DNA of 64,000 nt from a virus (Duplodnaviria; Caudoviricetes): positions 1 through 64,000 of the IMG/VR virus record IMGVR_UViG_3300020576_006930; one strand, written 5' to 3'. Below, piece by piece: positions 38,585 through 61,625 of the stretch; position 1 is the stretch's first letter; the number at the start of each line of letters is the position of its first letter. Under the pieces are notes generated by a model. That model was not told the origin of the DNA. It saw only the letters and a program-made list of their open reading frames with translations, and ran no database searches. A program made the position numbers and the translations under genes.

Positions 38585-38623
38585 CATTCTCAATTTTTCC
38601 TGTATACTTATTACTTAACGGTT

Positions 38624-43971: not shown

Positions 43972-45123
43972 ATGAACATATCGAAATACTTTGGTACTTT
44001 AGCGGAGTTATTTGACAGCGATCCCCACCAAGTCCGGGCGGAAATGTACCGCTCATTTTTCGGAGGCTATTCCACTCATGCGGCGGAATACACGAAAATT
44101 CTTGTAAAAAATTTGGGTGAAGTAATTGCCGCCGTTGAGAAACGTGGGTATGTCCAGATTCATGTCCGGGATTCGGGATTTACCGATGGGCATGAAAAAC
44201 GAATCTTATATCTTATCAATCGTGAAAAACAAGCAATGGTTTGCGCGATGATCCAGGAAAAAGATATTGTGCGGGCGAAGATCTCTGATCCATTTTTTGA
44301 TCTTGACGATGAAAGAGAATATGATGGCCGGCGCTTTAATTTTTTAGCGATCCAATCTTCCTCTGTGGAAGAATACATCTGGTTCAAAAAGTTTGTTCAC
44401 GATTCAAAATTGGTGGAAGATACCAAGAACAAACTTTTTATGATGAAGAGCACGGAATACTCCGGAATCGAACTAGACCCCTTTCCGATGGAGAATGTGG
44501 TTTGTGATATTGCCTTAAACTATGGCTCGAATTTTGTAAATATTCATAACAAAGTCGTGGAGAATCTCAAAGAGAAAAACTCCGGATTATACATTTTTCA
44601 CGGCCCTCCAGGAACAGGTAAAACCTCTTATATCAAATACCTGACGACCCAGGTATCCAATCGCAGATTTATTTTGGTACCCAATGGTCTGGTGGCCTCT
44701 CTATTTTCTCCGAAGATGATCCAAAGCATTTACACTTTTAAGGATAGTGTCTTGATATTGGAAGATGCTGAGCTCTGTGTTTTTAAACGGGATGGTCAAA
44801 ATAATGAATTGGTTTCAGGAATATTAAATATAACCGATGGGCTGTTAAAAGACTTACTGAACATTTCTATCTTTGTTACTTTCAATTCCAGTAAGATTGA
44901 CGAATTGGATAAAGCTCTCTTGCGTAAGGGGCGATTGAAAACGATGTACAAGTTCGACGCGTTGGCCACCGCCGATGCGCAAAAACTGTTGAACCAACTT
45001 GGTAAAAAGCACATTGCGTCTGGTCCGATGACCTTGGCGGAAATTTATAATATTGACGAAGAAGTGGATTTGGGTGGCGAAACGGTGCCCACGGATAAGA
45101 TTATCGGTTTTGGAAAGGCGTAA
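43972..45123 (+). CDS. AAA+ ATPase
   Basis: GPPGTGKT, LILEDAE, ILNITDGLL, DKALLRKGRL. Confidence 0.9.
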   Translation: MNISKYFGTLAELFDSDPHQVRAEMYRSFFGGYSTHAAEYTKILVKNLGEVIAAVEKRGYVQIHVRDSGFTDGHEKRILYLINREKQAMVCAMIQEKDIVRAKISDPFFDLDDEREYDGRRFNFLAIQSSSVEEYIWFKKFVHDSKLVEDTKNKLFMMKSTEYSGIELDPFPMENVVCDIALNYGSNFVNIHNKVVENLKEKNSGLYIFHGPPGTGKTSYIKYLTTQVSNRRFILVPNGLVASLFSPKMIQSIYTFKDSVLILEDAELCVFKRDGQNNELVSGILNITDGLLKDLLNISIFVTFNSSKIDELDKALLRKGRLKTMYKFDALATADAQKLLNQLGKKHIASGPMTLAEIYNIDEEVDLGGETVPTDKIIGFGKA

Positions 45124-45473
45124 TATGTATTATACGATGCGCCCAGATTTATATCTCAATTCTTCTCGCCGAAATGTCATAGACGGTTATTACGACATAA
45201 TTAACGAAAAGTTTGGTTCTCTTAAAGACGCCGCTGTTTTTGCAAAATTGACTCGTGTGGCATTAAGAGAATGTAATTGGCAAGTTCACGAACATCGATT
45301 CTTAACAAAGGTGAGAATTCCGTTAAAAACTATGTTTGATATGGGACTATTTTCTGATAAAATTAGTAAGGATAATTTAGGGGAATACTATCATTGGAAA
45401 GATTAATATCGGATTGTCAAAATAACCATTGACACTTTTCTTTTCTCCTGTATACTTATTTGTAGTTAGTGAT

Positions 45474-45547
45474 GGCAGCGTAGTTCAATAGTAGAACAAT
45501 GGTTTCATAAGCCGAAGACGGCGGGGCAGTACCGCCCGTTGCTACCA
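45474..45547 (+). tRNA. tRNA-Met (CAT)
   Basis: Loop TT-CAT-AA, atypical T loop; ~18 nt after a TTGACA/TATACT promoter. Confidence 0.75.
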
Positions 45548-45556
45548 ATTTTTAAT

Positions 45557-45634
45557 GGCGCTGTAGCCCAATTGGCAGGAGGCATCTGACTTAGGATCAG
45601 AGCAGTGAGGGTTCGACTCCCTTCGGCGCTACCA
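45557..45634 (+). tRNA. tRNA-Leu (TAG), short variable arm
   Basis: TCTGA-CTTAGGA-TCAGA. Confidence 0.85.
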
Positions 45635-45648
45635 ATTTTAGTTAGAAT

Positions 45649-45725
45649 GGCATCGTAGCCCAACGGCAGGAGGCGCTTCACTCAAAACGAAGACAGTGCT
45701 GGTTCAAATCCAGTCGATGCTACCA
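45649..45725 (+). tRNA. tRNA-Leu (CAA), short variable arm
   Basis: Loop CT-CAA-AA. Confidence 0.85.
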
Positions 45726-45734
45726 AATTTTCAA

Positions 45735-45808
45735 GCCGGTGTAGTATAGTGATATTATAACGCATTGGTAATGCGATGACGGGAGTTTGATTCTCCCCGC
45801 TGGCTCCA
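45735..45808 (+). tRNA. tRNA-Thr (GGT)
   Basis: CGCA-TTGGTAA-TGCG. Confidence 0.85.
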
Positions 45809-45815
45809 ATTTTAA

Positions 45816-45891
45816 GCCGCTGTGGCTCGACCGACAAGGCGCCTCATTTGTAATGAGGTTTATGCGGGTTTAATTCCTGCCAGCGGCTCCA
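45816..45891 (+). tRNA. tRNA-Thr (TGT)
   Basis: CCTCA-TTTGTAA-TGAGG. Confidence 0.85.
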
Positions 45892-45895
45892 ATTT

Positions 45896-45970
45896 GCCTC
45901 TTTGGTGATAATGGCAGCATTTCTGTTTCGTACTCAGAAGGTATTAGTTCGATTCTAATAAGAGGCTCCA
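45896..45970 (+). tRNA. tRNA-Thr (CGT)
   Basis: Loop TT-CGT-AC. Confidence 0.8.
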
Positions 45971-45975
45971 ATTTT

Positions 45976-46049
45976 CGTTCGTTAGTTCACGGTAGAATAC
46001 CTAGTCGAAAGACTGGGAGAAGGTGGCTCTAACCCATCACGAACGACCA
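45976..46049 (+). ncRNA. tRNA-like RNA with a GAAA tetraloop in place of the anticodon loop
   Basis: CGTTCGT/ACGAACG-A-CCA; D arm intact; CCTAGTC-GAAA-GACTGGG. Confidence 0.7.
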
Positions 46050-46051
46050 AC

Positions 46052-46127
46052 GTACCGTTAGGCAAATGGGAAGTCGGCAGTCTGCAAAACTGCTTTTGAG
46101 TTGGTTCGATTCCAACACGGTACTCCA
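46052..46127 (+). tRNA. tRNA-Cys (GCA)
   Basis: GCAGT-CTGCAAA-ACTGC, U73. Confidence 0.9.
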
Positions 46128-47005
46128 ATTTTATTTTACCCTATATGAAGTATGATTAAACTCAAACGAGTTATAGAAGAAAGTAAATACGATCTCCATC
46201 AAGCGAAGGAACTGACTTTCATTACTTACGGTGGCTTATCCGCCACCAAACAATTGGGTTATTCCAATGGAAAAGACCCAACTTTCCACGCTCCGCCGGC
46301 TAAACGGGGAATTTACGCCTTCGTCTGGCCTTACATAGAAAAATTTTTGTTAAGCGGTGGTCTCCCTGACCCGAAGAAGAGAAAAAAAGGTCAGCGGCAA
46401 CGGGCATCATATTTAAAAGATAAACACGGAAATGTAATTGCTTCCGGCCATCCAGATTTTGAGAAATTTTCAGACCGGAAACCTAGTTTTGCCAGGACCA
46501 AGAGCAATGAACCGTGGGATCCTGAAAAACACGATTGGCAAAAGGACACTCCGGTTCATGTATTATACAATCACGCAAACCGAAAAAAGTTTAAATACAG
46601 CGGAGAAATTTGGCACCATCTGGGTGAATTCTGTCCTGAGTGGACGATTTTTAATCGTCACGGTTCTTGGGTAAAAACGGATATGAATACTTTTGCTATG
46701 GCCTTTAAAAAGGAAATCGCCTTATCTCAGATACCCTCAGAGAGGCACCCGTTTACTTCGACGATGGACCACTTAGAAGTGTTTATTGATGAAAAAATAT
46801 GAAAATGTTAATTACGCAATGGTTATCGGCTCTGTTCGCATTAGTGTTCGTGGTAGGTCTTACAATTTTTTTCTTATCCCATCCCAAGATTATAGCGATT
46901 ACGTTATCGATTTCTTTTATATGGGTGGTCGTGTGGAAGATCAAGTGTTTCATATTTGACCCTCCCGAGCCATAATAAAATGATTGCGTCATTCTCATCA
47001 CTATT

Positions 47006-47395
47006 ATGAGTTTTATGAAAACCCCCGACTTTACGGTACCTGAAATTCACCCGAAGGGGTGGGGTTACGAATTATGGTTGGTGAATAACAACAAGTATTG
47101 CGGTAAAATTCTTCATTTCAATAACGGCAAGCGATGTTCCTTTCATTACCATAAATTGAAAGAGGAACATTTTTATTGTTCTTCTGGGTCTTTCCTATTA
47201 AAATTGTCCTGGGGCGATGATATTACCAAGGCAGAAGAACGATTATTTGAATCGGGGCAAGTGGTAGAAATTCCCATAGGGTTAAGACATCAGATGATTG
47301 CTTTGCAAGATGGTAGTCAATTGATTGAAATATCCACCCAACATCTTGAGGATGATTCGTATCGGGTGGCTCCGGGAGATAGTCAGAAAGTATGA
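47006..47395 (+). CDS. Cupin domain protein (mannose-6-phosphate isomerase-like)
   Basis: PKGWGYELW...SFHYHKLKEEHFY...IP.GLRHQM. Confidence 0.8.
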   Translation: MSFMKTPDFTVPEIHPKGWGYELWLVNNNKYCGKILHFNNGKRCSFHYHKLKEEHFYCSSGSFLLKLSWGDDITKAEERLFESGQVVEIPIGLRHQMIALQDGSQLIEISTQHLEDDSYRVAPGDSQKV

Positions 47396-47798
47396 GTTGC
47401 CATTCTATATTTATAGAATATGCCACTATTCAAAAAAATATCCGAAAACTGCTTTGAGGTGAATGAGGTCAAAGACTCATTATTGAAACAATTAGAAGCA
47501 AAGATCAAACAAAAATATCCCAATGTCGTGACATCGATTGATACTGATAGTGAGGGGAATCCAATTTTGGATATTGATACCGGCGAAACGAATTTTTATG
47601 TCAGTCAAGGACCAAATGAAAAATTTTCAGTTAGTGCGGTTTGGTCAAAAGATGAAAAAGGTAAAAAGAATTTAGATACGGATTCGATGGTGAAAGCAGT
47701 ATCGAGCATACCGGGAATGACTTAGAAATAAATTTTCAAAAAGCTTGACAAAAACAGGAAGTATGAGATACTTATTCCTGTAAGTGAGAAATAACAAT

Positions 47799-47849
47799 AT
47801 GAACAATCGCTGGTTTAATAATATTCGTAGAAGGAATGGCGGAGGCTGA
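47799..47849 (+). CDS. Leader peptide 1, MNNRWFNNIRRRNGGG
   Basis: 16-codon ORF between promoter (TTGACA 47745, GATACT 47767) and terminator; below the ORF-track cutoff. Confidence 0.85.
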   Translation: MNNRWFNNIRRRNGGG

Positions 47850-47910
47850 ATAAGCCTACCGATAGCGAAAGCTTTCGCCCGCCACTCCAAAAGGGTGGCG
47901 GGCTTTTTGT
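47837..47910 (+). promoter_or_regulatory. Transcription attenuator 1 heading the Trp/Arg/Asn/Phe/Ile tRNA operon
   Basis: Terminator GCCCGCCACTC-caaaa-GGGTGGCGGGC-TTTTT (47877-47908); leader TGGCGG (47837-42) is complementary to its 5' arm. Confidence 0.85.
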
Positions 47911-47929
47911 TTGTTCTTTGTCAATTTAT

Positions 47930-48003
47930 ATGTAGTTCGTATAATGGTATTACCTTCCTCTCCAAAAGGAAAGACAGGGGTTCGATTCCTCTACTACATG
48001 CCA
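47930..48003 (+). tRNA. tRNA-Trp (CCA)
   Basis: TTCCT-CTCCAAA-AGGAA, G73. Confidence 0.85.
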
Positions 48004-48013
48004 ATTTTTAGAT

Positions 48014-48088
48014 GCTCTTATAGTGAAATGGACATCACGGGACCCTGCGAAGGTCTAATTCCAAGTTCGAATCTTGGTAAGAGCGCCA
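48014..48088 (+). tRNA. tRNA-Arg (GCG)
   Basis: GGACC-CTGCGAA-GGTCT. Confidence 0.85.
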
Positions 48089-48097
48089 AATTTAAAT

Positions 48098-48174
48098 GCA
48101 CCCGTGGCGCAACTGGACAGCGCAAACGGCTTCTATCCGTAAGGTTGGGGGTTCGACTCCCTCCGGGTGTACCA
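48098..48174 (+). tRNA. tRNA-Arg (TCT)
   Basis: ACGG-CTTCTAT-CCGT. Confidence 0.9.
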
Positions 48175-48355
48175 ATTTTGAGTGTGTGACCGATAAAGCT
48201 TAGTGGTAGATCGGCCTTGAACTGAGGCTCGGAACACATAGGTTCAAATCCTATCGCGCTCACCAATTTCAGATGAACGAAAGTTCCCTAGTCTTGTGTA
48301 TTGGGCCGGTAAAAACTTTAGATTCCGGTATCTGATAAGAATTTTGTTTTAGGAT

Positions 48356-48431
48356 TCCTCTTTAGCATAACTGGTAATGCAGCACACTGTTAATGTGCCC
48401 TATGTTGGTTCAAATCCAACGGGAGGAGCCA
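48356..48431 (+). tRNA. tRNA-Asn (GTT)
   Basis: GCACA-CTGTTAA-TGTGC. Confidence 0.9.
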
Positions 48432-48492
48432 ATTTTAATAGCATAAAAAGTAGTAATTTTTCACAGGTAGTATATACTTATACTTGTGTGCT

Positions 48493-49089
48493 ATGAATAA
48501 AATATTACTAAAAAGATATGTTGATGAAGGACTTTCTATAAATGACATTTGTAAGAAGGTAGGTAAGGGAAACACCAGTATAAGATACTGGTTAAAAAAA
48601 TATAAACTAAAAACAAATTGGAAAGGTTCATTGGAAAGGAAAGTGCCAGATAATGAATTACTAAAAATAGCAAAAAATTCAAAAAGTTTTACTGATTGTT
48701 TGTTGAGAGTGAACGGAAATGCTGGCGGAGGTTCGTATTACTTTTACAAGAAAAGATTAGAAAAATTAAATTTTGATTTTTCAATATACAAAAATTTAAA
48801 CAGAATACCACTTTTTTTGGTTAGAAGCAATCAAGAAGCTATACAAAGAAAAAGAGGGTATAGGATCAGAAGAGAAAAATTACATTTGTATTTAAAATAC
48901 AATAATGTGGAATATAAATGTAGTAAATGCGGAATCTGTGAGTGGGAAGGGAAAAATTTGTTATTACATATTCATCATAAAGATGAAAATTCACAGAATA
49001 ATAAATTGGACAATTTATGTTATCTTTGCCCAAATTGTCATAATATACATCATTATAATGATGGTAAATTGGCTAACAAACTAATCTAG
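48493..49089 (+). CDS. HNH homing endonuclease with N-terminal HTH
   Basis: KCSKCGICEW...LHIHHKD.N..NN..NL..LCPNCH; stop codon lies inside tRNA-Phe. Confidence 0.85.
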   Translation: MNKILLKRYVDEGLSINDICKKVGKGNTSIRYWLKKYKLKTNWKGSLERKVPDNELLKIAKNSKSFTDCLLRVNGNAGGGSYYFYKKRLEKLNFDFSIYKNLNRIPLFLVRSNQEAIQRKRGYRIRREKLHLYLKYNNVEYKCSKCGICEWEGKNLLLHIHHKDENSQNNKLDNLCYLCPNCHNIHHYNDGKLANKLI

Positions 49090-49146
49090 TGAAAGTGCAT
49101 CCCTGAAGAGGATGAAAGCTCCGGGCAGAACGGAGGTTAGCCACCA
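49071..49146 (+). tRNA. tRNA-Phe (GAA), atypical D and T loops
   Basis: GGCTAAC/GTTAGCC-A-CCA; CATCC-CTGAAGA-GGATG. Confidence 0.75.
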
Positions 49147-49156
49147 ATTTTTAAAT

Positions 49157-49231
49157 CCCGGGATAGTGTTAATGGAAGCACGTTAGATTGAAACCCTAAC
49201 AGAGACGGTTCGAATCCGTTATCCGGGACCA
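49157..49231 (+). tRNA. tRNA-Phe (GAA), second copy
   Basis: TTAG-a-TTGAAAC-c-CTAA; canonical T arm. Confidence 0.7.
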
Positions 49232-49295
49232 ATTACGTAGTTTTTCTACTTTCTACGACCCCAGCGTAACGGCTGAATCAAATAAAGTGGAATAT

Positions 49296-49370
49296 GCACC
49301 CATAGTGAAATGAATATCACGTTGCGCTTCGAACGCAACATTTCGGGTTTGAATCCTGATGGGTGTACCA
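49296..49370 (+). tRNA. tRNA-Arg (TCG)
   Basis: TTGCG-CTTCGAA-CGCAA. Confidence 0.9.
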
Positions 49371-49629
49371 ATTTAGTAATGTAGTTAAAAGGTAGAATAT
49401 GGTCCGTGGAGGATAATAAGTTGCAACTTAATTCATTGACTATGCCGGCGGCGGGTTTGTCTGCTAATCGGTTGTGAGGTTCAAATCCACACCATTACTT
49501 TAATTTATGACCGAAGACGATGAGATACTGATTGAATGTAGTTGTTGCCATGACCTGTTCGATTTGGAACAGATGCGGATGAATGAAAATGGAAAATCGG
49601 TATCTTGTGATGAGTGTCGATCTGAAAAT

Positions 49630-49705
49630 GGTAGTGTAGCTCAGTTGGCAGAGCGTAGTCTTGATAAGGCTCGGGTCGGGGGTTCGACTCCCTCCACTAC
49701 CACCA
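49630..49705 (+). tRNA. tRNA-Ile (GAT)
   Basis: Loop TT-GAT-AA, canonical arms. Confidence 0.9.
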
Positions 49706-49717
49706 ATTTTTAAAAAC

Positions 49718-49794
49718 GCAACGGTAGCTCAATTGGATAGAGCGTTAGCCTCCGAAGCTAAAGGTTGTGGGTTCGACTCCCGCTCGTTGCACCA
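49718..49794 (+). tRNA. tRNA-Arg (CCG)
   Basis: TTAGC-CTCCGAA-GCTAA. Confidence 0.9.
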
Positions 49795-50227
49795 AAATAA
49801 AATGAAATTGGAATTAATCAAGCAAAAAAACAAAATATCATCGTATAAAATTAATGGCGAACACACTGAGTATGAGGTAGAGGGTCATGTTTTTTATGTA
49901 AAAGGGTACCCAGCATTTATGATTTTGGAGAATGGCGAAATCAATCCCATTACACCTAATGGAATGGTTATCTATTATGATAATAAAAAAGAATGCGATG
50001 AATGGTTGAAAAATGAAGCAATTAACTACCGAACAATTTAAAAAATACATGTCGAACCCATTGACCAATGACGAAAAAGTTCGAAGTTGGTGTTCATTGC
50101 CGGACAATCGTTACTACACAGTTTCGGTTTGGCCTGAGGCAAGAGCGGGGCAGGTAAGAGTTTCAGAAAACTTGTTTCGGGATGTAAAAGTAAAGAAGAT
50201 ATCCAAATCGGATCAACCATAAAAGTT

Positions 50228-51262
50228 ATGAACATTCTATTGGACAGAGACACATTCCGCAATGGGGTGTTCATGCGTGACAAAAACAAATGTGTCATTT
50301 GTGGGCAACCGGCTCAGGATGCGCATCACATTATTGAACGTAGATTATTTGACGATGGTGGTTATTATCTTGACAATGGCGCTTCATTATGTGCGACGTG
50401 TCATATTAAGGCCGAATCTACTGAGATTAGTTGCGAAGCTATCAGAGCAGGAGCTGGAATCGTGGACATTGTTTTGCCGCTTCACTTATATCGGGATAAT
50501 GTTTACGATAAGTGGGGCAACATAATCAATGTCAATGGCACGCGGCTGAAAGGCGAATTATTCGGTGATGTCAGTGTTCAGAAGATTTTGAAACAGGGTG
50601 GAGTTCTTAGCAAGTTTGTGGATTATGTAAAATATCCCCGCACTTACCATTTACCTTGGAGTGACGGTTTGACGAATGATGATCGGGTAATGACTCCGGA
50701 GGATTTAAAATTTTTAGAAGATAGTTCGGTGGTCGCTACGGAAAAAATGGATGGAGAAAATACCACCATTTATACCGATTACATTCACGCTCGTTCGGTG
50801 GATAGTCGTTCACATTGGACACAATCATATGTGCGCCAATTACAAAGTAAAATTGGACATGATATCCCAAAGGGTTGGCGGATTTGTGGTGAGAATCTTT
50901 ATGCCAAACATTCCATCAAGTATGATAAATTGGAAGATTTCTTTCTGATGTTTTCGATTTGGGATGACAAAAATCAGTGTTTGAGTTGGTTGGAAACCGT
51001 GGAATGGGCAAAGTTGTTGGGATTAAAAGTGGTAGACGTGTTCTTTGTCGGGCCGTGTTGGAAAGACACGGTACATAAGCTATATGAGGGCAATTCAAAA
51101 CATAAGCCCATTGAAGGTTATGTGGTCAGGACATTGAACGGTTTCTCTTATGGTAATTTTAGAAAATGTACTGGTAAATTTGTTAGAAAAAACCACGTCC
51201 AGACCAGTCACCACTGGCGGTTTGAGAAGATCGAAAAGAATGAGTTATCGTCCGTAGGGTGA
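50228..51262 (+). CDS. HNH domain fused to an ATP-dependent RNA ligase
   Basis: N-terminal CVICG...DAHHI...NGASLC..CH; C-terminal KYPRTYHLPWS, TEKMDGEN (motif I), GENLYA, EGYVVR, K.VR. Confidence 0.85.
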   Translation: MNILLDRDTFRNGVFMRDKNKCVICGQPAQDAHHIIERRLFDDGGYYLDNGASLCATCHIKAESTEISCEAIRAGAGIVDIVLPLHLYRDNVYDKWGNIINVNGTRLKGELFGDVSVQKILKQGGVLSKFVDYVKYPRTYHLPWSDGLTNDDRVMTPEDLKFLEDSSVVATEKMDGENTTIYTDYIHARSVDSRSHWTQSYVRQLQSKIGHDIPKGWRICGENLYAKHSIKYDKLEDFFLMFSIWDDKNQCLSWLETVEWAKLLGLKVVDVFFVGPCWKDTVHKLYEGNSKHKPIEGYVVRTLNGFSYGNFRKCTGKFVRKNHVQTSHHWRFEKIEKNELSSVG

Positions 51263-51423
51263 ATTTTAAATAAACTAATCGTAAAAAAGTTTCGAAAGTT
51301 GTTGACGAAAAGTTAAAATGGTATATACTTATTCTTGAGTTGAGACGGCATCGGTAAAGACAACGAATAAAAAACGGTGCTTGACAACAAAGAATTTCGG
51401 TGTACAATATACACCATAAGAAA

Positions 51424-51483
51424 ATGAATATTAGTTCAAAACATCAATATAAGGATAGTGAACCAGCAGGAGGCGGTGCATAA
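51424..51483 (+). CDS. Leader peptide 2, MNISSKHQYKDSEPAGGGA
   Basis: 19-codon ORF after promoter TTGACA 51381 / TACAAT 51403 and before a terminator. Confidence 0.85.
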   Translation: MNISSKHQYKDSEPAGGGA

Positions 51484-51550
51484 AGCACATCCTGAAGCGT
51501 AAAGCTTTATGACCGCCATCCTCTAATACAGGGTGGCGGTTTTTTATTTT
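51469..51550 (+). promoter_or_regulatory. Transcription attenuator 2 heading the Lys/Tyr/Asp/Gln/Glu/Asn/His/Pro/Ser tRNA region
   Basis: Terminator ACCGCCATCCT-ctaatac-AGGGTGGCGGT-TTTTT (51512-51545); leader GGAGGCGGT (51469-77) is complementary to its 5' arm. Confidence 0.85.
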
Positions 51551-51763
51551 TAAGAGTAGTAAAGTCAAGCTGGACTTAAAACGGAGTATGAGATAGCACT
51601 CAAGAAACGCTGTTCGTTGAAACCGAAAGGTAGTGAACGATAAATCCATAAAGCAGACGGCTCACGCGATTCCGTCGTTTATGGCTTCAAAAAGAAGGCG
51701 TGATTGAGTGAAAGCCCACCCGGAAGTAGGCTTGACGTTAGCGGAGAGACGCTTTTTAATTTC

Positions 51764-51849
51764 GCGAGTATGCGCCGAGCTGGCCGATGGCACCGGACTT
51801 TTAATCCGGTATATAAACACCGTGGGTTCGAATCCCACTGCTCGCACCA
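51764..51849 (+). tRNA. tRNA-Lys (TTT), enlarged variable region
   Basis: CCGGA-CTTTTAA-TCCGG. Confidence 0.8.
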
Positions 51850-51902
51850 TTTTACTTTTAAGATTTTTTGTATTTTAAAAGTCATTCATGATATTTATAT
51901 GT

Positions 51903-52370
51903 ATGAAGAAATGCTATACATGCCAACAAGAAAAAGAAACGGTGGAATTTAACAAAAGTAAATGTCGTAAAGACGGGTTGAATTCTATTTGTAAAGAATG
52001 TTCTAAAAAACGGAGTAAACAATATTACAAGGAAAATACCGAATATCATAGAAAAGCGGTCTATCGAAATAAACAACAGTACGGAGAACAATTGAGGGGC
52101 TGGATATCCGATTTAAAATCGGGAGGGTGTTGTATATGTGGTGAGAAAGAGATATGTTGTTTGGATTTTCATCATATCGATTCAAAAACAAAAGATTTTG
52201 CTATTTCAAGTTTGGTATACAATCTATCCAGAAAAAAACTAGGGAATGAATTGACTAAGTGTGCAATAGTGTGCTCAAATTGTCACAGAAAAATTCACAT
52301 AGGCGTTTTAAAAAACCCTATTGATAAAAAACTAGAAAACATATCCATACCGAATTTAACAGTGAATTAA
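51903..52370 (+). CDS. HNH endonuclease (paralog of 16303-16758)
   Basis: CYTC...CKEC; CCICGE...LDFHH...KCAIVCSNCHR. Confidence 0.85.
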   Translation: MKKCYTCQQEKETVEFNKSKCRKDGLNSICKECSKKRSKQYYKENTEYHRKAVYRNKQQYGEQLRGWISDLKSGGCCICGEKEICCLDFHHIDSKTKDFAISSLVYNLSRKKLGNELTKCAIVCSNCHRKIHIGVLKNPIDKKLENISIPNLTVN

Positions 52371-52399
52371 TTTTCAAACGAATTCAAAACAATTTTAAT

Positions 52400-52476
52400 G
52401 CAGTTGAAGCCATGATGGACCGGCACCCGGCTTTTACCCGGATATGGAGTGGGTTCGATTCTCACCGACTGCACCA
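52400..52476 (+). tRNA. tRNA-Lys (TTT)
   Basis: CCGG-CTTTTAC-CCGG. Confidence 0.8.
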
Positions 52477-52485
52477 ATTTTAAAC

Positions 52486-52562
52486 GCGCTCGATGCTACA
52501 GTGGATCGGCACCCGGCTCTTACCCGGATATGATGAGGTTTCAACTACCTCCGAGCGCACCA
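52486..52562 (+). tRNA. tRNA-Lys (CTT)
   Basis: CCGG-CTCTTAC-CCGG. Confidence 0.75.
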
Positions 52563-52918
52563 ATTTCTGATTCCCCCATATCAACAATCACCGTTTTTCC
52601 CAACGGTTCAAATTTGTTGACCAAATCCGGATTTATTTCCCGTGGGGGAATCAATTTTAATTTAACAATTTTGCCTCAGTCCAGACGGCCTACTTCTAGT
52701 TAAGCACAGACGAAGTAATGAAGAAATGGAGTCTGGGTGCTCTGAGTGCAAATTCATTCGCCAGTTATCTAATCTGGTGCCAACAGCAATCAGGAAAATT
52801 AAAACATTCGTAGGAAGCTATGCTGACCGCAAGAGTGTTTTGGTTGGAATGGTTGGGCCGCTGTTCTGAAAACAAAATTATACGGGGCCGTTCACACCCC
52901 GTTGACAAAGTGAACAAT

Positions 52919-53005
52919 GGTAGGGTATCCAAATGGCTAAAGGACACGGTCTGTAAAACCGCCGCTCAAAAGGCTTTGTGAGTTCGAATCTCATCCCTAC
53001 CACCA
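52919..53005 (+). tRNA. tRNA-Tyr (GTA)
   Basis: CGGT-CTGTAAA-ACCG, long variable arm. Confidence 0.9.
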
Positions 53006-53010
53006 ATTTA

Positions 53011-53064
53011 AAGATGCCAACAGCAAACAAAAATTCAATTATAATGAAAAAAAGATGGCATCTT
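53011..53064 (+). ncRNA. ACAGCAA-scaffold small RNA
   Basis: AAGATGCCA/TGGCATCTT stem, ACAGCAA, inner TTCA-ATTATAA-TGAA hairpin. Confidence 0.65.
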
Positions 53065-53103
53065 GTTTTAGAACCCTCTATTTATATGGGAGAGGTCTAA
53101 TTT

Positions 53104-53529
53104 ATGAAAAAATTTAATTGTTTATATTGTAAAAAAGAAAAAACACACCAATCGTCTCAGTCTATGGGGAAATATTGTTCGGCAAAATGTCAACAAAATT
53201 TTCAAATAGAGAAAAAAATGGAAAGTGGAAATTGTTTGTATACTCCGGGAATAAGAAATTGGTGTTATAATAATTTAAAACAGGTATGTGATGTGTGTGA
53301 TACGGGATTAATATGGAATAATAAACCGCTGAGATTACAAGTCGATCACAGAAATGGAAATTCCAGAGATAACCGTAGAAATAATTTAAGAATGATTTGT
53401 CCCAATTGTCACACCCAAACCGAAAATTGGGGGATAAAAAACGCATCTCCTGAGGGAGTTGAAAAAATGGTAGTTGCGGGGAAATTAACACAAAAGAATT
53501 TTTGGTCATATAAAGTAATAGTAACCTAA
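53104..53529 (+). CDS. HNH homing endonuclease
   Basis: KYCS.KCQ; CDVC...LQVDHRNGN..DN...NLRMICPNCHTQT; stop codon inside tRNA-Asp. Confidence 0.85.
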   Translation: MKKFNCLYCKKEKTHQSSQSMGKYCSAKCQQNFQIEKKMESGNCLYTPGIRNWCYNNLKQVCDVCDTGLIWNNKPLRLQVDHRNGNSRDNRRNNLRMICPNCHTQTENWGIKNASPEGVEKMVVAGKLTQKNFWSYKVIVT

Positions 53530-53577
53530 CGCACTGTCTATGCGAAGTCCGGGGAGCGTAACCCCGTATGACCGCCA
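53504..53577 (+). tRNA. tRNA-Asp (GTC)
   Basis: GGTCATA/TATGACC-G-CCA; CGCA-CTGTCTA-TGCG. Confidence 0.8.
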
Positions 53578-53763
53578 TTTTGATCTGTTGGCTAATCCAC
53601 CTTGCTACGCATTGAGTATGGATCGTAGAGCACGCGGACGGTTTGAATGAATCCCGAACAAGTAGGCTACTAACCGAAAAGTAAGGCTGAGTGAGAAAAC
53701 CGGTGCTTGAAACTGATGATTGGCTTAGTAACCAATAAGCGTTCTGACAGATTAATTTTTTAT

Positions 53764-53837
53764 ACCCCTTTGTTGTAGTGGTAGCAAAGTTCTCTTTGAA
53801 AGAAAAAGTGGTGGTTCGATTCCATCAAGGGGTGCCA
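53764..53837 (+). tRNA. tRNA-Gln (TTG)
   Basis: TTCT-CTTTGAA-AGAA. Confidence 0.8.
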
Positions 53838-54041
53838 ATTTAATGGGTGTACAGTAGTTCAATAAATGGGATAGACATAAAAAGTCTGGGTAGCGCCTCA
53901 GTCCAATTATGGAACCAGTATGAAATCCCCTAGTCGTTGAGAATCTGAGAACACAGAATGAGATAGACGTTCACGCTGAACGGAATATTGTGAAATCCTC
54001 TAGTAAGTGATACGCTGTAAATCAGCGGCCCCATATTTTAT

Positions 54042-54115
54042 GTTCCGGTCGATTAATGGTAGGTCACTGCCCTTTCAAGGCGGGAGCGGGAGTTCGATTC
54101 TCCCTCGGAACACCA
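54042..54115 (+). tRNA. tRNA-Glu (TTC)
   Basis: CTGCC-CTTTCAA-GGCGG. Confidence 0.9.
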
Positions 54116-54123
54116 TTTTTAAT

Positions 54124-54196
54124 GCTCCTATGATGTAATGCAACATCTTCGGCCGATTACCGAAGCTTGGTGGTTCAAGTCCACCTGGGAGTACCA
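54124..54196 (+). tRNA. Atypical tRNA-Ile-like (GAT) with C33
   Basis: TTCGG-CCGATTA-CCGAA; full cloverleaf with ACCA. Confidence 0.55.
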
Positions 54197-54202
54197 ATTT
54201 AC

Positions 54203-54279
54203 GGCCCCATCGTCTATATGTGTTAGGACATCATGTTCTCAACATGAAAAATAGGGTTCAAATCCCAATGGGGCTACCA
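54203..54279 (+). tRNA. tRNA-Glu (CTC)
   Basis: TCATG-TTCTCAA-CATGA. Confidence 0.85.
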
Positions 54280-54361
54280 ATTTCGAATTCCCTGAGTGAG
54301 TCCGCAATTCTATACCGTGATATTCGACGGTGAATGTGGGTTAAACACACCGGGCATTTAC

Positions 54362-54437
54362 GGCCCCGTCGTCTAGAGGACAAGGATTGCGGATTCTCAA
54401 TTCGCGGAACTCGGTTTGATCCCGAGCGGGGCTACCA
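54362..54437 (+). tRNA. tRNA-Glu (CTC), second copy
   Basis: GCGGA-TTCTCAA-TTCGC. Confidence 0.85.
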
Positions 54438-54848
54438 ATTTACATGGGCTTTTTCCATTCCTCAGACTCTTTCAATTCTTTTATAAATTGTTCGTGACGA
54501 TTAAGCCCGACAAGATTTTCATATAATTTTAAGGCTTCAGCGGACATACAATTTACTGACGCATTTTGGATTTTCTTTTGGGTGGTGTATTTTGATGAAT
54601 TTGTAATCATAATTTTTTCAGTGATATTCCGTTTACGGGATGTAATATCAAGGTGGGAAGTATATCTCATTCTTGAAAAGAAGATATGGGGTTAAACCCC
54701 ATTAGGTAATACCCTACTAATCCAATTTCCATAAGCTATGAACCAACAAATAAACAACGGCATTAGATGGTTGTAACGGGTGCGAAGTCCGACCCAATGA
54801 ACATAATTCATTGGTGTAAGCCAGACATAGTAAAGTGGAAAGATTTAT

Positions 54849-54923
54849 TCCAGAGTAGTGTCAAAGTAGCACACGCGGCTGTTAACCGTGTTAGTGTTGG
54901 TGCGAGTCCAACTTCTGGAGCCA
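54849..54923 (+). tRNA. tRNA-Asn (GTT)
   Basis: CGCGG-CTGTTAA-CCGTG. Confidence 0.85.
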
Positions 54924-55192
54924 ATTTTTGTTGCGCTAACGGGCTAGAGTAAAGTAACTCAGTCGCCTTTATAAGCGAAAGATAGTAGGTTAACGCCCTA
55001 TATGACCCGCAGGTATCTCTAAGACATGAGGTCGCAACAAAACGATTTTCAACACCGATAAATAACGATGCTGTTATATTTCCGGACCAACGGTTGACCG
55101 ACAAAAACAGCATCGGTTTTGAACCTATTAGTTCAACGCATGATGAATGTGAGGATGAGAAGTTAGCTCACGATAAAATCTTCTCCACTTTT

Positions 55193-55247
55193 AAGATGCC
55201 AACAGCAACCAAATCACTTGCCTGTTAAGCAAAAAAGATGGCATCTT
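55193..55247 (+). ncRNA. ACAGCAA-scaffold small RNA displaying an Asn-type anticodon loop
   Basis: Same outer stem as 53011; inner TTGC-CTGTTAA-GCAA. Confidence 0.65.
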
Positions 55248-55772
55248 GTTTTTATGGTCGGCGTCTGAATCTGCTGGTGAGGTTAGCTTCATAGGATGAT
55301 AATAATGACGAGTTAACCCGGCCGCCGATTTTTTGAAGGAACTGGCGGACTGAGATGTGTATAGTTGAGGTCCGATAGACAATGCCAGCCTTCAATTTTA
55401 TGGTGATATTCATTTGATTTTTTTGTTTTGGTGATGATATTTATCAGCAAATACGTCGTATTTACGATGTCAAAACAAAGGTTTAAATGAAAAAATATCA
55501 AGAAATTAGTCATTATATCAAATTTAAAGCTCGTAATGGAGATGGAGAAGTGATATCGATAGTAGAGGATGTAGATAAAGCGAAATTTATTTATGATTCT
55601 TTAGAAGAAATCCCCCCGTTCGGTCCAGATAAAATTATGGTAGAAAATAATAGAATGTGGAAAGTAATTAAACAAGACGGATTAACTATTCTAGCCAAAA
55701 CTCTAAAATAATTTAGTAAAAAATACGGATTCAAATCGGTTTTTCCTCCCCATCGATAATACTTATTGGCAT

Positions 55773-56678
55773 ATGAAAATGGGAGTCGTAAAATGTAGTC
55801 GGTGTCGTAAAGAATTCGAAAAACCCCAATCTGAGATTAAGAGAATGGTAAAAAGAAAATGGGTAAACCATTTTTGTGGTACCAAATGTCTTTCTGAATT
55901 CGGCGTGGTGTTTCGGAAGAAACTTTCCGATGAAAGAATAAAATCGTATTATCTTTCTCCTAAGAAATGTCCAAATTGTGATTCAGTCATTCCACACGAA
56001 GACAAATCACAAAAAACATATTGTTCATCAAAATGTTTCGGTATCCATTCTCAAAAAAACGGTGGCCATTGTCATTGGTCAGATGAAGATAAAGAACGCT
56101 TACGGCAACAAGCCAAAAACAATCCCAAATTTGTTCCGGGGTGGAATAGAGGGAAACGGTATGCTCCAACAATTACATTAAAATGTAGAAATTGTGGGGG
56201 TGATTTTATACAAACAATTTCCAAAATAAATTCTAATAAAACGCAAACTTGCGGAAAAGAATGTAGAAGAAAATTACAATCTATCAATTTACTTAACCAG
56301 TACAAAAATGGGAAGAAAGTATATGGCGGAACAACCAAGTGGTTAAAATACAAAGATATAAAAGTTCAGGGCTCATATGAATATAGAACTTGTCAAATCT
56401 TAGACCGTTGGCAACAGGTCAATAAAATTAAAAAATGGGAATATACAAACGATAGATTTGAGTATATAGGAACTGACGGGAATAACCACAATTACTTGAT
56501 GGATTTCAAGATATGGAATAACGATGGTTCTTTTTATTATCTAGAAACTAAAGGATATGAAAAAGAAAATGATAGGTTGAAATGGAAATCTGTCGTGGAT
56601 GCCGGATACAAATTGGATGTGTGGTTTGATCCTGATATTAGACAGAGAGAAAAAGAATTTATGGAGGTTGTAGCATAA
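55773..56678 (+). CDS. Zinc-finger repeat protein with a C-terminal PD-(D/E)xK nuclease domain (homing endonuclease-like)
   Basis: Three CxxC...CxxxC modules; GSYE...YLMDF...YLETKG; stop codon inside tRNA-His. Confidence 0.75.
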   Translation: MKMGVVKCSRCRKEFEKPQSEIKRMVKRKWVNHFCGTKCLSEFGVVFRKKLSDERIKSYYLSPKKCPNCDSVIPHEDKSQKTYCSSKCFGIHSQKNGGHCHWSDEDKERLRQQAKNNPKFVPGWNRGKRYAPTITLKCRNCGGDFIQTISKINSNKTQTCGKECRRKLQSINLLNQYKNGKKVYGGTTKWLKYKDIKVQGSYEYRTCQILDRWQQVNKIKKWEYTNDRFEYIGTDGNNHNYLMDFKIWNNDGSFYYLETKGYEKENDRLKWKSVVDAGYKLDVWFDPDIRQREKEFMEVVA

Positions 56679-56741
56679 CTGGTTAATGTCCTAGGTTGTG
56701 AACCTAGTTTTATGCGGATTCGAATTCCGTCAACCTCCCCA
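56663..56741 (+). tRNA. tRNA-His (GTG) with G-1
   Basis: CTAGG-TTGTGAA-CCTAG; G-1:C73. Confidence 0.9.
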
Positions 56742-57052
56742 ATTTCAGCGGACTCAGTCGCATAGCTACGACTGGATACAACACAACTGAGCCACGACGC
56801 GGAGATGAAGCTCGAGCTTTAATAAGTCAATGTGATCGCAGTTGAAACCGCTGTCGTATTTCCAATGGAATGAGTATCTGATTAAAAACACAAGGAGAGA
56901 GATTGTTCCGCTGCAGCGGACAGACCTCCGTGAAATCCTCCCGAAGTTTAGGAGAAAGTTCCTTTTTAGTTTACGCCAGGTTAGGGATGGATTATTCCTC
57001 ACGGAAGTCTCAATTGACAAGCGAGCGTCCAGAAACCCACTGGCTGAAATTT

Positions 57053-57165
57053 TAGATGCGGACAGCAAGCAATCGATTATGTCAAACTCTTAGTGTGGGT
57101 TCGAATCCCATGTATGGTGTAATGGTAGCACAGGAGTCCCGCAAGGGAATCAAAAAACGCATCTA
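57053..57165 (+). ncRNA. ACAGCAA-scaffold RNA carrying a permuted tRNA elbow (T arm before D arm)
   Basis: TAGATGCG/CGCATCTA stem; GTGGG-TTCGAAT-CCCAT then TGGTGTAATGGTAGCAC, closed by ACTCT/GGAGT. Confidence 0.7.
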
Positions 57166-57351
57166 GTTTTTCGAGTAGTAATAATAGGAAGTGACCAATC
57201 GGTATCCGCCTCATGAATGTAACCCAGGACTGGTAGCCTGTCGTGCGAGCAAGTTAATCCCTCGCTGGTGAAAGGGTAGGACAAGTTGATACCGGCGTAT
57301 TATTATGAGCGGTAGTTGGGACCTGATAAGTTCACAAACCATTCGATTTAT

Positions 57352-57425
57352 GGCCCATTCGTCTATCAGCAGGACCACTCGTTTTCAGCGAGAAGAGGCC
57401 GGAGCGTCACCGGCATGGGCTACCA
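57352..57425 (+). tRNA. tRNA-Glu (TTC)
   Basis: CTCG-TTTTCAG-CGAG. Confidence 0.75.
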
Positions 57426-57779
57426 CTTTCGGCAGTCATAGGGAGTCATGACCTTAGAACACTCATGTTGTGTTATGCTCTGAAATAAAGTCACATTAAA
57501 AATTAAGATAAATACATGTATAATCAAAATAAGTAGATGTGATGGACACGTAAGAGAGACTGCGACCATTTCGGGTATGTCTTGGGAGAGTTATCGGGTT
57601 CAATTCCCGAATAGTCCACCATACGGGCTATGGGATGGTCCTGTCGCTAGCGACAAAAGCGGGTTCGATCCCCGTCATATCCATTGATTTGACCCGGAGA
57701 ATATCCGATAAATACGACACTTGGTTGGGTGCTATTCCAGAAGCTTAAAATACCCTTCAAAAGACGGGTCACCAATTTC

Positions 57780-57854
57780 GCAGTATTGATGCTAGTGGCA
57801 ACATGCGGCTTTCCCAAAGCTGATTCGTCAGTTCGATTCTGATATACTGCTCCA
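57780..57854 (+). tRNA. tRNA-Gly (CCC)
   Basis: CGGCT-TTCCCAA-AGCTG, U73. Confidence 0.85.
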
Positions 57855-58130
57855 TTTCGCCGGTTTGGTCTAACCACCTCTTAATCGGGGACGGACGGTT
57901 TGGAAAGACGGCCGGGTTAGCCCCGGACAACGTAGGTTCAAATCCTACAATCGGCTCGAATTTACGGGGTTACAAGGAAAGGTTCGGTAAACGAAAACTA
58001 GGCCCATTTCAACAAACGCAAGCTCCGGAATAATGTACAACCCTTGCCTGAGATGGATTGGTGGTGAACACCATTTAAGTAGACCGTTACTGATCAGCGG
58101 TTCGATTCCGCTTATCTCCACCATTTATAA

Positions 58131-58206
58131 CGGAGTGTCGCCTAGTGGTATGGCGCTTGTTTCGGGAACAAGAATAACGGGAGTTCGATTCTCCCCACTC
58201 CGACCA
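58131..58206 (+). tRNA. tRNA-Pro (CGG)
   Basis: CTTGT-TTCGGGA-ACAAG. Confidence 0.9.
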
Positions 58207-58212
58207 GTTTAT

Positions 58213-58289
58213 CGCCTGATCGTTTAAAAAACTAAGACACCGACCCTTGGGGTCGGAAATGCCAAGGTAAAGTCTGGCAAAGGCGACCA
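58213..58289 (+). tRNA. Degenerate Pro(TGG)- or Gln(TTG)-like tRNA
   Basis: C1:G72 and A73; CCGAC-CCTTGGG-GTCGG; poor T loop. Confidence 0.4.
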
Positions 58290-58446
58290 TTTATGCCATC
58301 CAGGATCGGGTGCAATTCCCTTTACACAGAGTACTCTAGCGTGAATCTGTGGGTGGCCCATTTTAACGGACTTGTCTTTTGATAAGGATGTAATGTAACC
58401 AGACACCAAATCGTGGGCCTGATAATCCCGTTCCGTTTTACTATTT

Positions 58447-58878
58447 ATGAATATGGAGTACAAATCGTTTTTCAATTATCTAAAAGAAGGTGTGGAAAAA
58501 TATCTCATTTGGCAGCCGACCGGAATTTTCCGGGCGATGGTTGATTATTTAGATACTTTAACCTCATCAAACAACGAGGTCTATCGGGGAGCCTCCGATA
58601 AGGAAATTTCTATATTGAAAAATACCAAAGTTTTTAAATCCAACGGCAAAGGTAATACCCGGGATAATGCCGGGACATATGTTTCCGCAGATATCCATTT
58701 AGCCGCCGCTTTTGCGCTGAGATATTACCGGGATGGCCACGGAGGTTCGGTGCTCGTTTTAGAAAAGAGCAAATTACCTGAATTAGTCGCCCGCGATCCT
58801 GGAAATTTTACCGTGGACCATGTTCCACTGGAAGCGGTAAAACGCATCATCAATTTAAAAGACTTTACCGGTCGATGA
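58447..58878 (+). CDS. Possible ADP-ribosyltransferase-fold protein
   Basis: VYRG...YVSAD...A..FA...VL pattern; weak. Confidence 0.4.
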   Translation: MNMEYKSFFNYLKEGVEKYLIWQPTGIFRAMVDYLDTLTSSNNEVYRGASDKEISILKNTKVFKSNGKGNTRDNAGTYVSADIHLAAAFALRYYRDGHGGSVLVLEKSKLPELVARDPGNFTVDHVPLEAVKRIINLKDFTGR

Positions 58879-59137
58879 AGGAAAGACAATACTGGCTGGG
58901 GTGAGATTCCCCTCATAAGGCCAATTATTGGAAAGAGAAGCACCTTCCAGGGTGTGATGGTACGACGGTACCGTAGTGAAATCCCTTCGTCAAATGTAAA
59001 AATGAGAGAGATAATAGATGGGAACCTGATGTGGTGTAATTGGCAGCACAGCCTTTAAAGGCAGGTTGAGGTTCAATTCCTCACGACTAGGCCATCTTAA
59101 TGAACATTCGTGAAATCCTCATCTAATTTTTTAGTTC

Positions 59138-59214
59138 GGGGTGGTAGCTTAATTGGTTAAAGCGGCAGCCTGTCACGTTGTAGACTGGGGGTTCGAGTCC
59201 CCTTCATCCCGCCA
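59138..59214 (+). tRNA. tRNA-Asp (GTC)
   Basis: GCAGC-CTGTCAC-GTTGT. Confidence 0.9.
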
Positions 59215-59545
59215 TTTTATGATTGAGTCCGGAGCCATCGTCCGCGGTGATGGCCGGAGAGTTCCAAACTGAACACTCAATCGCCACTTTAGTTACAAAG
59301 AGAAGATGGAGCTGGTAATAATTATTGTCATTATATTACCCCTCTCCGTGAAAGATGATTCCTGTGTAGAAAGCCAGGACAGATTGTAGTTGCACTGGTA
59401 AATGGTGCAATCGATTGGTTTGACAACCAAAGCAAAGAATACCTTGCATAAAGGTCGGAAACTATAACAACACCTAACTAATGTTGTAGGAGGTTCCCGT
59501 AAAGGTGCTTGTAATATAGCCTAGCAATCCTTTGTAACTTATTTT

Positions 59546-59682
59546 GCCATGCTAGTTCAATGTAGAACCCATCTCTTAAAAAGCCGATAGTCTCCCTGAA
59601 CGGAGAAGTTAGTGGGGTGTTTGCCCTGCGATGTAATTAGGCCAGATGAACTGCTAGTGCCAAGTCTAGCGCATGGCTCCCA
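59546..59682 (+). ncRNA. tRNA body with a ~60-nt insertion in the anticodon loop
   Basis: GCCATGC/GCATGGC acceptor, D arm, CATCT...AGATG stem, T arm. Confidence 0.6.
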
Positions 59683-59883
59683 TTTTGGACAACCCTGGCC
59701 TTTGACGCCGGGGGCTGATGAAGGACGAGTCTCTCCGATTGAATATCGCAGGTGTTAGACCACTTAGATATTCGTTTCAGTGTCCGATCTTTTTTCCAAA
59801 TTTTTTATTGATTAGTTTAAAGTATATAACTCAATTCATACTTGAACTATTACGATAATCCTAATCAATTGATTTAACAAATT

Positions 59884-60732: not shown

Positions 60733-60738
60733 TTTTAT

Positions 60739-60894
60739 GCTCGTGAGTAAGGAACTACCCGTTGAACTCCCAGATCGTGCCCAAGCTAAGATCTTCGAAT
60801 CTGGTGGTGGACTGCTGCTAATCCCAGTGAAGTTACCATTTTGGAGGAATGCCTCATGCACGGATTGTCAGTTCGATTCTGACTGCGAGCTCCA
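60739..60894 (+). ncRNA. Enlarged tRNA-like RNA (156 nt)
   Basis: GCTCGTG/TGCGAGC-T-CCA; GTCAG-TTCGATT-CTGAC. Confidence 0.65.
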
Positions 60895-61429: not shown

Positions 61430-61480
61430 ATTTACCATTGACTTTATGTCGTGGTTCATATATACTTATTTGTTGAATAT

Positions 61481-61568: not shown

Positions 61569-61625
61569 ATACACGGTTCGAATATTATTTTTAATTTTTT
61601 TCGAACCCCTCTTATACTTATTGAC

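Follow-up and report, generated by a model that had tools for sequence, protein, structure and literature searches.

To our knowledge, the way in which phages control their own tRNA genes is largely unknown, and the usual view of these genes is that they supplement the host pool constitutively. The question is raised by a locus in a tailed phage (Duplodnaviria; Caudoviricetes) held in IMG/VR as virus record IMGVR_UViG_3300020576_006930, in which a promoter, a short open reading frame (ORF) and a strong hairpin (positions 47745-47913) stand directly before a run of tRNA genes that leads on to a gene for an HNH-RNA ligase. The record comprises 139,132 bp, of which the first 64 kb are referred to here as the window. 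Given that CheckV rates the record as ~39% complete, the whole phage genome is probably ~350 kb. We consider it likely that the phage tRNA operon is gated by 47745-47913, hereafter attenuator 1, as a ribosome-mediated (leader-peptide) transcription attenuator. This reading is based upon the promoter-leader-antiterminator-terminator anatomy of the locus, a paralogous copy further downstream, analogues in four phages and a permutation test of leaders against tRNA blocks, while translation of the leader and operation of the switch itself are predicted from sequence.

The leader ORF, MNNRWFNNIRRRNGGG* (47799-47849, plus strand), has 16 codons, of which codons 2-13 form the sensor and codons 14-16 (GGC GGA GGC) are structural. 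Following the ATG, the sensor codons are AAC, AAT, CGC, TGG, TTT, AAT, AAT, ATT, CGT, AGA, AGG and AAT, and the Gly codons are followed by a TGA stop. The codons named in the original prediction as preceding the Gly tail (AAC/AAT, CGC, TGG, TTT, ATT, CGT, AGA and AGG) are therefore present as described, including the four different Arg codons (CGC, CGT, AGA and AGG). All 12 sensor residues after Met fall within the set of Asn, Arg, Trp, Phe and Ile, all five of these amino acids are used, and the set is exactly that of the eight canonical tRNAs encoded at 47930-49794. By standard wobble rules, the anticodons of this block can read 12 of the 12 sensor codons. Based upon amino-acid frequencies from the long ORFs of the record, the chance that 12 residues are all in the set and that all five amino acids are used is 8.6e-9, and the in-set probability alone is 1.3e-7 under a null of local nucleotide composition. 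The 139-kb record has 1020 ORFs of 10-30 codons that start with ATG, and this leader is the sole one with a 100% match (next best 89%).

The tRNA block (plus strand) opens with tRNA-Trp(CCA), tRNA-Arg(GCG) and tRNA-Arg(TCT) at 47930-48174 and continues with tRNA-Asn(GTT) (48356-48431), tRNA-Phe(GAA) (49157-49231; canonical arms and a 9-nt anticodon loop in the minimum free energy (MFE) fold), tRNA-Arg(TCG), which ends at 49370, and finally tRNA-Ile(GAT) and tRNA-Arg(CCG) (49630-49794). Using ARAGORN and Infernal, no other canonical tRNA was identified there. Interspersed are a tRNA-like scaffold with acceptor stem and T arm only (48180-48265) and another at 49378-49500, which has an acceptor stem and T arm with a non-standard core or insert and in which no anticodon can be assigned. 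For the scaffold at 48180-48265, Gln(TTG) was given by relaxed ARAGORN, GAA or AAC was read in other registers and the MFE loop has 5 nt; none of these identities was accepted. An HNH homing-endonuclease-like ORF of 197 aa (48496-49089) is inserted in the array and overlaps the 5' end of an atypical cloverleaf (49071-49147) with the anticodon loop CUGAAGA (GAA, Phe), which has an odd D arm and T loop and was called by neither ARAGORN nor Infernal. The earlier statement that leader and block share the same five amino acids and no others was consequently upheld for the canonical tRNAs and does not extend to the two scaffolds of no assignable identity; of the two Phe tRNAs it counted, one was called (49157-49231), and the second GAA cloverleaf was found only by eye and folding.

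The promoter of attenuator 1 (47745-47772; this and all following signals on the plus strand) consists of a -35 TTGACA, a 16-nt spacer and a TG-extended -10 GATACT, followed by the phage motif CTTAT, and the leader starts ~20 nt downstream of the expected transcription start. The general promoter motif of this phage, TTGACA-N16/17-TATACTTAT, precedes its tmRNA gene and other tRNA units as well. A weak Shine-Dalgarno sequence before the leader is normal here because the genes of this phage generally lack one (no preference over random positions). The intrinsic terminator (47877-47913) has an 11-bp stem with 9 G-C pairs (-22.3 kcal/mol) followed by a T-run, and lies 27 nt before tRNA-Trp. A strict terminator scan of the plus strand of the whole 139-kb record returned only five strong terminators, of which two (47877 and 51511) come after short leaders within the tRNA island. 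The antiterminator 5' arm, TGGCGG (47837-47842), pairs with CCGCCA at 47879-47884 to give a three-way junction over two small hairpins, AGGCT-GAATA-AGCCT across the TGA stop (47843-47857) and AGC-GAAA-GCT (47864-47873), the latter with a counterpart at the same place in the paralogous attenuator 2.

The nascent RNA was folded at every A-site position with a ribosome mask that covered the P site together with 12 nt on its upstream side and 15 nt on its downstream side. In this folding, before the terminator 3' arm is made, the GGCGG of the Gly codons pairs with the CCGCC of the terminator 5' arm, for an antiterminator gain of -6.8 kcal/mol in attenuator 1 and -11.9 kcal/mol in attenuator 2. The antiterminator forms when the A site is at or before codon 10 (attenuator 1) or codon 12 (attenuator 2), and in both cases is lost when the ribosome is at the Gly or stop codons. 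Codons 2-9 of attenuator 1, inside this effective zone, hold all five amino acids. The small stop-codon hairpin coexists with the antiterminator and does not compete with it. No separate 1:2 pause or anti-antiterminator hairpin was found, and when the transcript as far as the 5' arm was folded with no ribosome, the antiterminator formed; read-through is therefore expected of a leader that is not translated. In silico, the locus has a promoter-proximal, codon-enriched ORF, a terminator before the regulated genes and an exclusive antiterminator that depends on ribosome position. The genes downstream are eight tRNA genes, tRNA-like scaffolds, the HNH ORF, two small ORFs and the RNA ligase, and not genes for amino-acid biosynthesis, amino-acid transport or an aminoacyl-tRNA synthetase.

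Attenuator 2 (51381-51541, plus strand) comprises a promoter, the leader MNISSKHQYKDSEPAGGGA* (51424-51483) and a terminator (51511-51541; -19.9 kcal/mol) that would also terminate the unit begun at attenuator 1. Tandem promoters (51302 and 51381) are located upstream of its leader, and its antiterminator is an 18-bp helix running through the stop codon. When the two attenuators are aligned, the -35, GGCGG, the stop region, CCGCCA, GGGTGGCGG and the T-run are conserved, and the sensor codons are not. The tRNA block of attenuator 2, taken up to a consensus promoter at 61438, encodes Lys (three), Tyr, Ser, Glu (three), Ile, Asn, His, Gly, Pro (two), Asp and Arg(CCT), and a structured RNA of ~220 nt lies between the terminator and tRNA-Lys at 51764. 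Within leader 2, 12/14 sensor residues are in the set of its own block and 9/11 amino acids are covered (P ~0.005). Asn and Ile are the only residues common to both leaders, and tRNAs for both are encoded in both blocks. Leu, Thr and Cys, whose tRNAs are carried by an unattenuated unit (45429-46127), are absent from both leaders.

For comparison with other huge phages, 80 IMG/VR loci fetched with the ligase as bait and larger stretches of four records were used. These were scanned by structure only, for a strong hairpin and T-run preceded by a stretch able to pair with the hairpin 5' arm, this stretch being covered by a short ORF. A relaxed hairpin scan of the relatives gave many weak false candidates, and hairpins of ≤ -17 kcal/mol with a T-run were kept. 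In the resulting units, the 3' end of the short ORF holds a copy of the terminator 3' arm and the leaders are unrelated in sequence; the ribosome-position-dependent antiterminator logic was the same in G002, G003 and G005. The leader of G005, MAMRREHREFDIIE-RPEGHRD, with the sensor RREHREFDIIE, precedes a block of Phe, Asp, Ile, Glu, Glu, Arg, His and Arg tRNAs and matches it in 11/11 residues and 6/6 amino acids (P 5e-7). Two leaders were identified in G003, one of which (G003_A, MDIFVSADFSKVAKPEQQYSV...) matches its own block in 20/20 residues (P 1.6e-4) and the other (G003_B) in 19/22 (P 2e-5); each leader covers the share of the amino acids that belongs to its own block, and the matches to the opposite block are just 0.05 and 0.18. 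For G002, 27/33 residues match (P 1e-3), and the leader of G001 is homologous to that of G002.

When leaders were permuted against blocks, the true assignment was the best of 720 by both in-set fraction and Jaccard index, so that the leader-versus-operon permutation check proposed alongside the original prediction, run here across phages, came out in its favor. Between G001 and G002, three indels occur within the leader ORF, all three of 3 nt, the stops align, and past the stop the first indel measures 10 nt. For the translation of leaders of this kind, such conservation of the frame is the strongest evidence that the sequences provide. The terminator stem of the same pair carries compensatory changes. 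Also conserved in G001 and G002 is a stretch of ~200 nt that leads from the attenuator terminator to the first tRNA-His (L024 11700-11890, L034 15250-15460) and is possibly another structured RNA. Apparent leader-terminator units before Thr-Phe tRNAs in L021, L026 and L030 were rejected, because in each of them a gene rich in Gly, Asn and His comes to its end and a promoter follows. A search of IMG/VR with the back-translated pattern of leader 1 returned no match. The structural pattern GGCGG...CCGCCA...GGTGGCGG returned at least 118 matches; among the 80 that were fetched, nearly all small contigs, one had a T-rich tail, with no tRNA within 1.5 kb downstream.

In the mechanism proposed for attenuator 1, RNA polymerase would start at the promoter at 47745 and transcribe the 16-codon leader. 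Fast reading of codons 2-10 would bring the ribosome over the Gly/stop segment, allowing the terminator to form and transcription to stop before tRNA-Trp. If instead the ribosome lingered or stopped at a codon for Asn, Arg, Trp, Phe or Ile, or was missing altogether, the antiterminator would keep hold of the 5' arm, and read-through would then extend over the eight tRNA genes, the two small ORFs and the HNH-RNA ligase gene, as far as attenuator 2. Given that the products are tRNAs that read the sensor codons, such a circuit would constitute negative feedback on decoding capacity.

The HNH-RNA ligase (50228-51262, plus strand; 344 aa) combines PF01844 (27.7 bits) and PF09414 (102.8 bits against a cut-off of 27) in a Pfam scan and matches phrog_24030 'RNA ligase' at full length (E 1e-128 over residues 4-341). 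Two overlapping small ORFs of 79 and 69 aa with no family match (49802-50222, plus strand) occupy the interval from the last tRNA to the ligase gene. Packing is tight throughout: tRNA-Arg(CCG) ends at 49794, ORF79 starts at 49802 and is overlapped by ORF69, and the ligase ATG lies 5 nt past the ORF69 stop, leaving no gaps across 49718-51262. No terminator-like hairpin of any strength was found in 47904-51510, in agreement with the earlier observation that the unit continues to the ligase gene with no terminator; the hairpin at the ligase stop codon reaches only -2.9 kcal/mol. Internal promoter-like sites before the ligase match at most 9/12 positions, and no strong promoter is among them. Tight packing, together with the lack of a terminator or strong promoter between, makes co-transcription the economical reading, and it appears somewhat more probable than separate transcription that the ligase is co-transcribed with at least the last tRNAs. 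At attenuator 2 the transcription unit would either end or be checked once more.

The K173-M-D-G of nucleotidyltransferase (NTase) motif I (KxDG) and residues C22, C25, H33, H34, N50, C55 and H59 are invariant in 20 homologs, and this invariance of the HNH and ligase catalytic residues argues for a maintained enzyme. An AlphaFold2 (AF2) model had a pLDDT of 90.7, and in a fold search its NTase domain resembled Rnl5, Rnl3, Rnl2 and Trl1, a generic likeness that gives no specific assignment. The structural match to T4 Rnl1 was weak (E 2e-3, rank 48), the Pfam scan gave PF09414 and HNH only and thus no Rnl1-family domain, and a sequence search of PDB chains with the ligase returned no match. Neither of the families of a Pnkp-like kinase/phosphatase (PF13671, PF08645) was found in the 139-kb record, which is ~39% of the genome.

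Several observations weigh against attenuator 1 acting as proposed. Its antiterminator is short, with a closing helix of 5-6 bp, and the equilibrium fold favors the terminator over the antiterminator, so the switch would have to be kinetic. Given the +15 nt footprint, sensor codons 11-13 are too near the antiterminator arm to act, and codons cognate to the Arg(TCG) and Arg(CCG) tRNAs are absent from the leader. The scaffolds of unassigned identity could break the exact five-amino-acid match, and are the main uncertainty as to whether no other amino acid is represented. Among the relatives, the structural candidate at G002 104762 does not match its tRNA block; when this candidate was added and the block of attenuator 2 was defined strictly, 4/5040 permutations by in-set fraction and 1/5040 by Jaccard index reached the observed value. 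A -10-like TATACTTAT with no -35 occurs at 48473, before the inserted HNH ORF, and a promoter-like TTGTCA-16-TATAAT (47918-47945, plus strand; 11/12 match) directly after the terminator could serve as a bypass promoter. Units in G003 have the order promoter, leader, terminator, promoter, tRNAs, in which consensus sigma-70 promoters, perfect or near-perfect, stand right after both terminators (L014 8220-8294; G003 ~81536-81480). In view of the promoter-like sites after terminators at 47918 and in both G003 units, attenuation may only add to basal transcription. The 47918-47945 site is without the CTTAT extension of this phage, one such match per 19.5 kb is not unlikely by chance, and its transcripts would carry no functional tRNA-Trp because its -10 is part of the tRNA-Trp D arm. 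These same sites bear on a simpler explanation, in which the hairpin is a mere terminator or insulator of the upstream unit (promoter 45429 to ORF 47420-47725), the tRNAs are transcribed from 47918 and the composition of the ORF is a coincidence. No terminator was found in 45429-47877, hence upstream transcripts would end at the 47877 hairpin, and both the terminator-then-promoter order of G003 and the plain terminator-promoter-tRNA units of L021, L026 and L030 are what such an arrangement looks like elsewhere. We nevertheless regard this explanation as improbable, given that a coincidence of ~1e-8 would have to recur in attenuator 2, G003, G005 and G002, that an end-of-operon terminator has no need of the consensus promoter between the upstream gene and the leader, that transcripts from 47918 would begin within tRNA-Trp, and that the ORF frame is conserved between G001 and G002. 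Less credible still is a T-box-like element, in which the untranslated leader RNA would bind uncharged tRNA through its codon array or UGGC motifs and so stabilize the antiterminator. By our own reading of the sequence, GGGUGGCGG in the 3' arms of both terminators recalls the T-box core, and UGGC could pair with the GCCA 3' end of a tRNA; against this, Stem I and a specifier loop are absent, no T-box or other Rfam family matched at E up to 1, and the codons run in one frame from ATG to stop, a frame that is kept across the G001/G002 indels.

A leader-peptide attenuator at 47745-47913 remains the likely reading, and the question that follows is whether the ligase belongs to its function. In the alternative to such coupling, the attenuator is real and the ligase is a passenger, the tRNA island being a landing zone for HNH-bearing mobile genes, with no tRNA-repair role for the ligase and no functional link; we regard this as a serious possibility, though somewhat short of an even chance. 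The island holds two further HNH ORFs (48496-49089 and 53104-53529), and the ligase is found in varying contexts, with roughly half of the loci having no tRNA within 10 kb. In G001, G002 and G005 an attenuator lies a short way downstream of it, and in L021, L026 and L030 it stands behind a plain promoter, whereas only in G003, the sole relative with this arrangement, does it lie inside an attenuated block (Asn/Arg/Leu). ORF79 and ORF69 were considered as partners of the ligase and rejected, as they are not conserved with it. The generic NTase fold match and the lack of a Pnkp-like gene in the record point in the same direction. The opposing evidence is that tRNAs occur within 10 kb in about half of the loci with a full-length ligase, compared to about one fifth expected (a rough estimate for a ~300-kb genome), that the ligase lies between Arg tRNAs in G004 and is embedded in the G003 block, and that its HNH and ligase catalytic residues are invariant across the 20 homologs. 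Judged by these gene neighborhoods, the ligase shows an association with tRNA islands; in the present phage, attenuator 1 probably controls it. That it serves in tRNA repair and is co-induced for that purpose is doubtful; the suggestion in the original prediction that tRNA replacement and tRNA repair may be induced together was not supported, given a ligase that is not of the Rnl1 type, no Pnkp-like gene in the ~39% of the genome covered by the record and the variable contexts. The nearest phage as judged by the ligase is 60% identical.

The mechanism class to which attenuator 1 would belong is classical, namely ribosome-mediated attenuation, and its nearest relatives are the multivalent thrL and ilv leaders. 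In enterobacteria, thrL senses Thr and Ile and the ilvGMEDA leader senses Ile, Val and Leu, and further leaders include trpL, hisL and pheL. The phage locus resembles these in having a promoter-proximal ORF rich in regulatory codons, a terminator before the structural genes, an alternative hairpin set by ribosome position and several amino acids sensed by one leader. It differs in that its targets are tRNA genes and an RNA ligase instead of biosynthetic enzymes, so that the product would feed back directly on decoding of the sensor, and in that the runs of one to three amino acids of enterobacterial leaders are replaced by a five-amino-acid panel, and by up to ~14 amino acids in other phages. 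The geometry is also simpler, with the antiterminator arm inside the end of the ORF and no separate 1:2 anti-antiterminator seen, and an untranslated leader should read through where trpL shows super-attenuation. What is new in the phage locus is that tRNA genes are the target, along with its feedback topology, a leader of the panel type and a geometry that is simplified. T-boxes, which control aminoacyl-tRNA synthetase and amino-acid genes, bind uncharged tRNA directly and without translation; the phage locus is similar in that tRNA status would be sensed, and transcription controlled, through competing terminator and antiterminator hairpins, although neither T-box RF00230 nor any other Rfam family matched in 44500-64000 at E up to 1. 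Mixed tRNA-mRNA operons are represented by E. coli thrU-tyrU-glyT-thrT-tufB and the phage T4 tRNA cluster, and as in these a protein gene would follow a tRNA array on one transcript and be freed by tRNA processing; we know of none that is preceded by a leader-peptide attenuator. In phage T4, tRNA is repaired by Pnkp and Rnl1 following attack by the anticodon nuclease PrrC. Both systems include an ATP-dependent RNA ligase that is encoded by the phage and linked genetically to tRNA function, but the ligase here, as read from its sequence, is an HNH plus PF09414 protein (phrog_24030) and not of the Rnl1 family (PF09511), and no Pnkp companion was found in the 139-kb record. No description of leader-peptide control of tRNA genes was found in the full-text literature, a search that left subscription journals largely outside.

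The tRNA island as a whole spans 45.4-68.0 kb and contains 42 tRNAs by ARAGORN. A phage-encoded tmRNA is located at 38603-39026 (gene at 38624), with a tag ending in AVAA, its own consensus promoter and a strong terminator just upstream at 38278. Within the unattenuated unit, a tRNA-like scaffold at 45474-45544 has an acceptor stem, an unusual T arm, a non-standard core or insert and a CAT anticodon. The HNH homing-endonuclease-like ORF at 53104-53529 lies between tRNA genes, and an ORF of 282 aa at 59884-60732, also within the island, carries a prokaryotic N-terminal methylation (type IV pilin-like) motif (PF07963). A tRNA with a CTA anticodon (amber suppressor) was identified at G000 64060-64135, 60 nt past the end of the window, with a consensus promoter at 63943; CTA-anticodon tRNAs occur likewise in L009, L016, L040 and L078, a hint that TAG may be recoded in this group of phages. 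Elsewhere in the window, on the minus strand at 33541-33625, a 17-nt unit, TATACTTACACACATCT, which contains the phage -10 motif, is repeated five times in tandem.

If leaders of this kind operate as proposed, a phage would gauge decoding capacity codon set by codon set and top up just those tRNAs that are short, which would explain how it could cope with hosts of different codon usage or with host defenses in which tRNAs are cut or depleted. Such a circuit would also take classical attenuation beyond amino-acid metabolism, where it is known, to an output that directly relieves the stall being sensed. Were the ligase part of this response, an attack by the host on these particular tRNAs (e.g., by an anticodon nuclease) would call up both tRNA replacement and rejoining from one sensor. 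We put forward, tentatively and as less than probable, the broader view that the tRNA supply of giant phages is run by closed-loop controllers, in each of which a leader peptide samples the codons read by the tRNAs of one block and switches that block on, and of which the Trp/Arg/Asn/Phe/Ile controller also drives the HNH-RNA ligase. Additionally, the leaders offer a means of defining the boundaries of tRNA operons in uncultured phages using sequence only.

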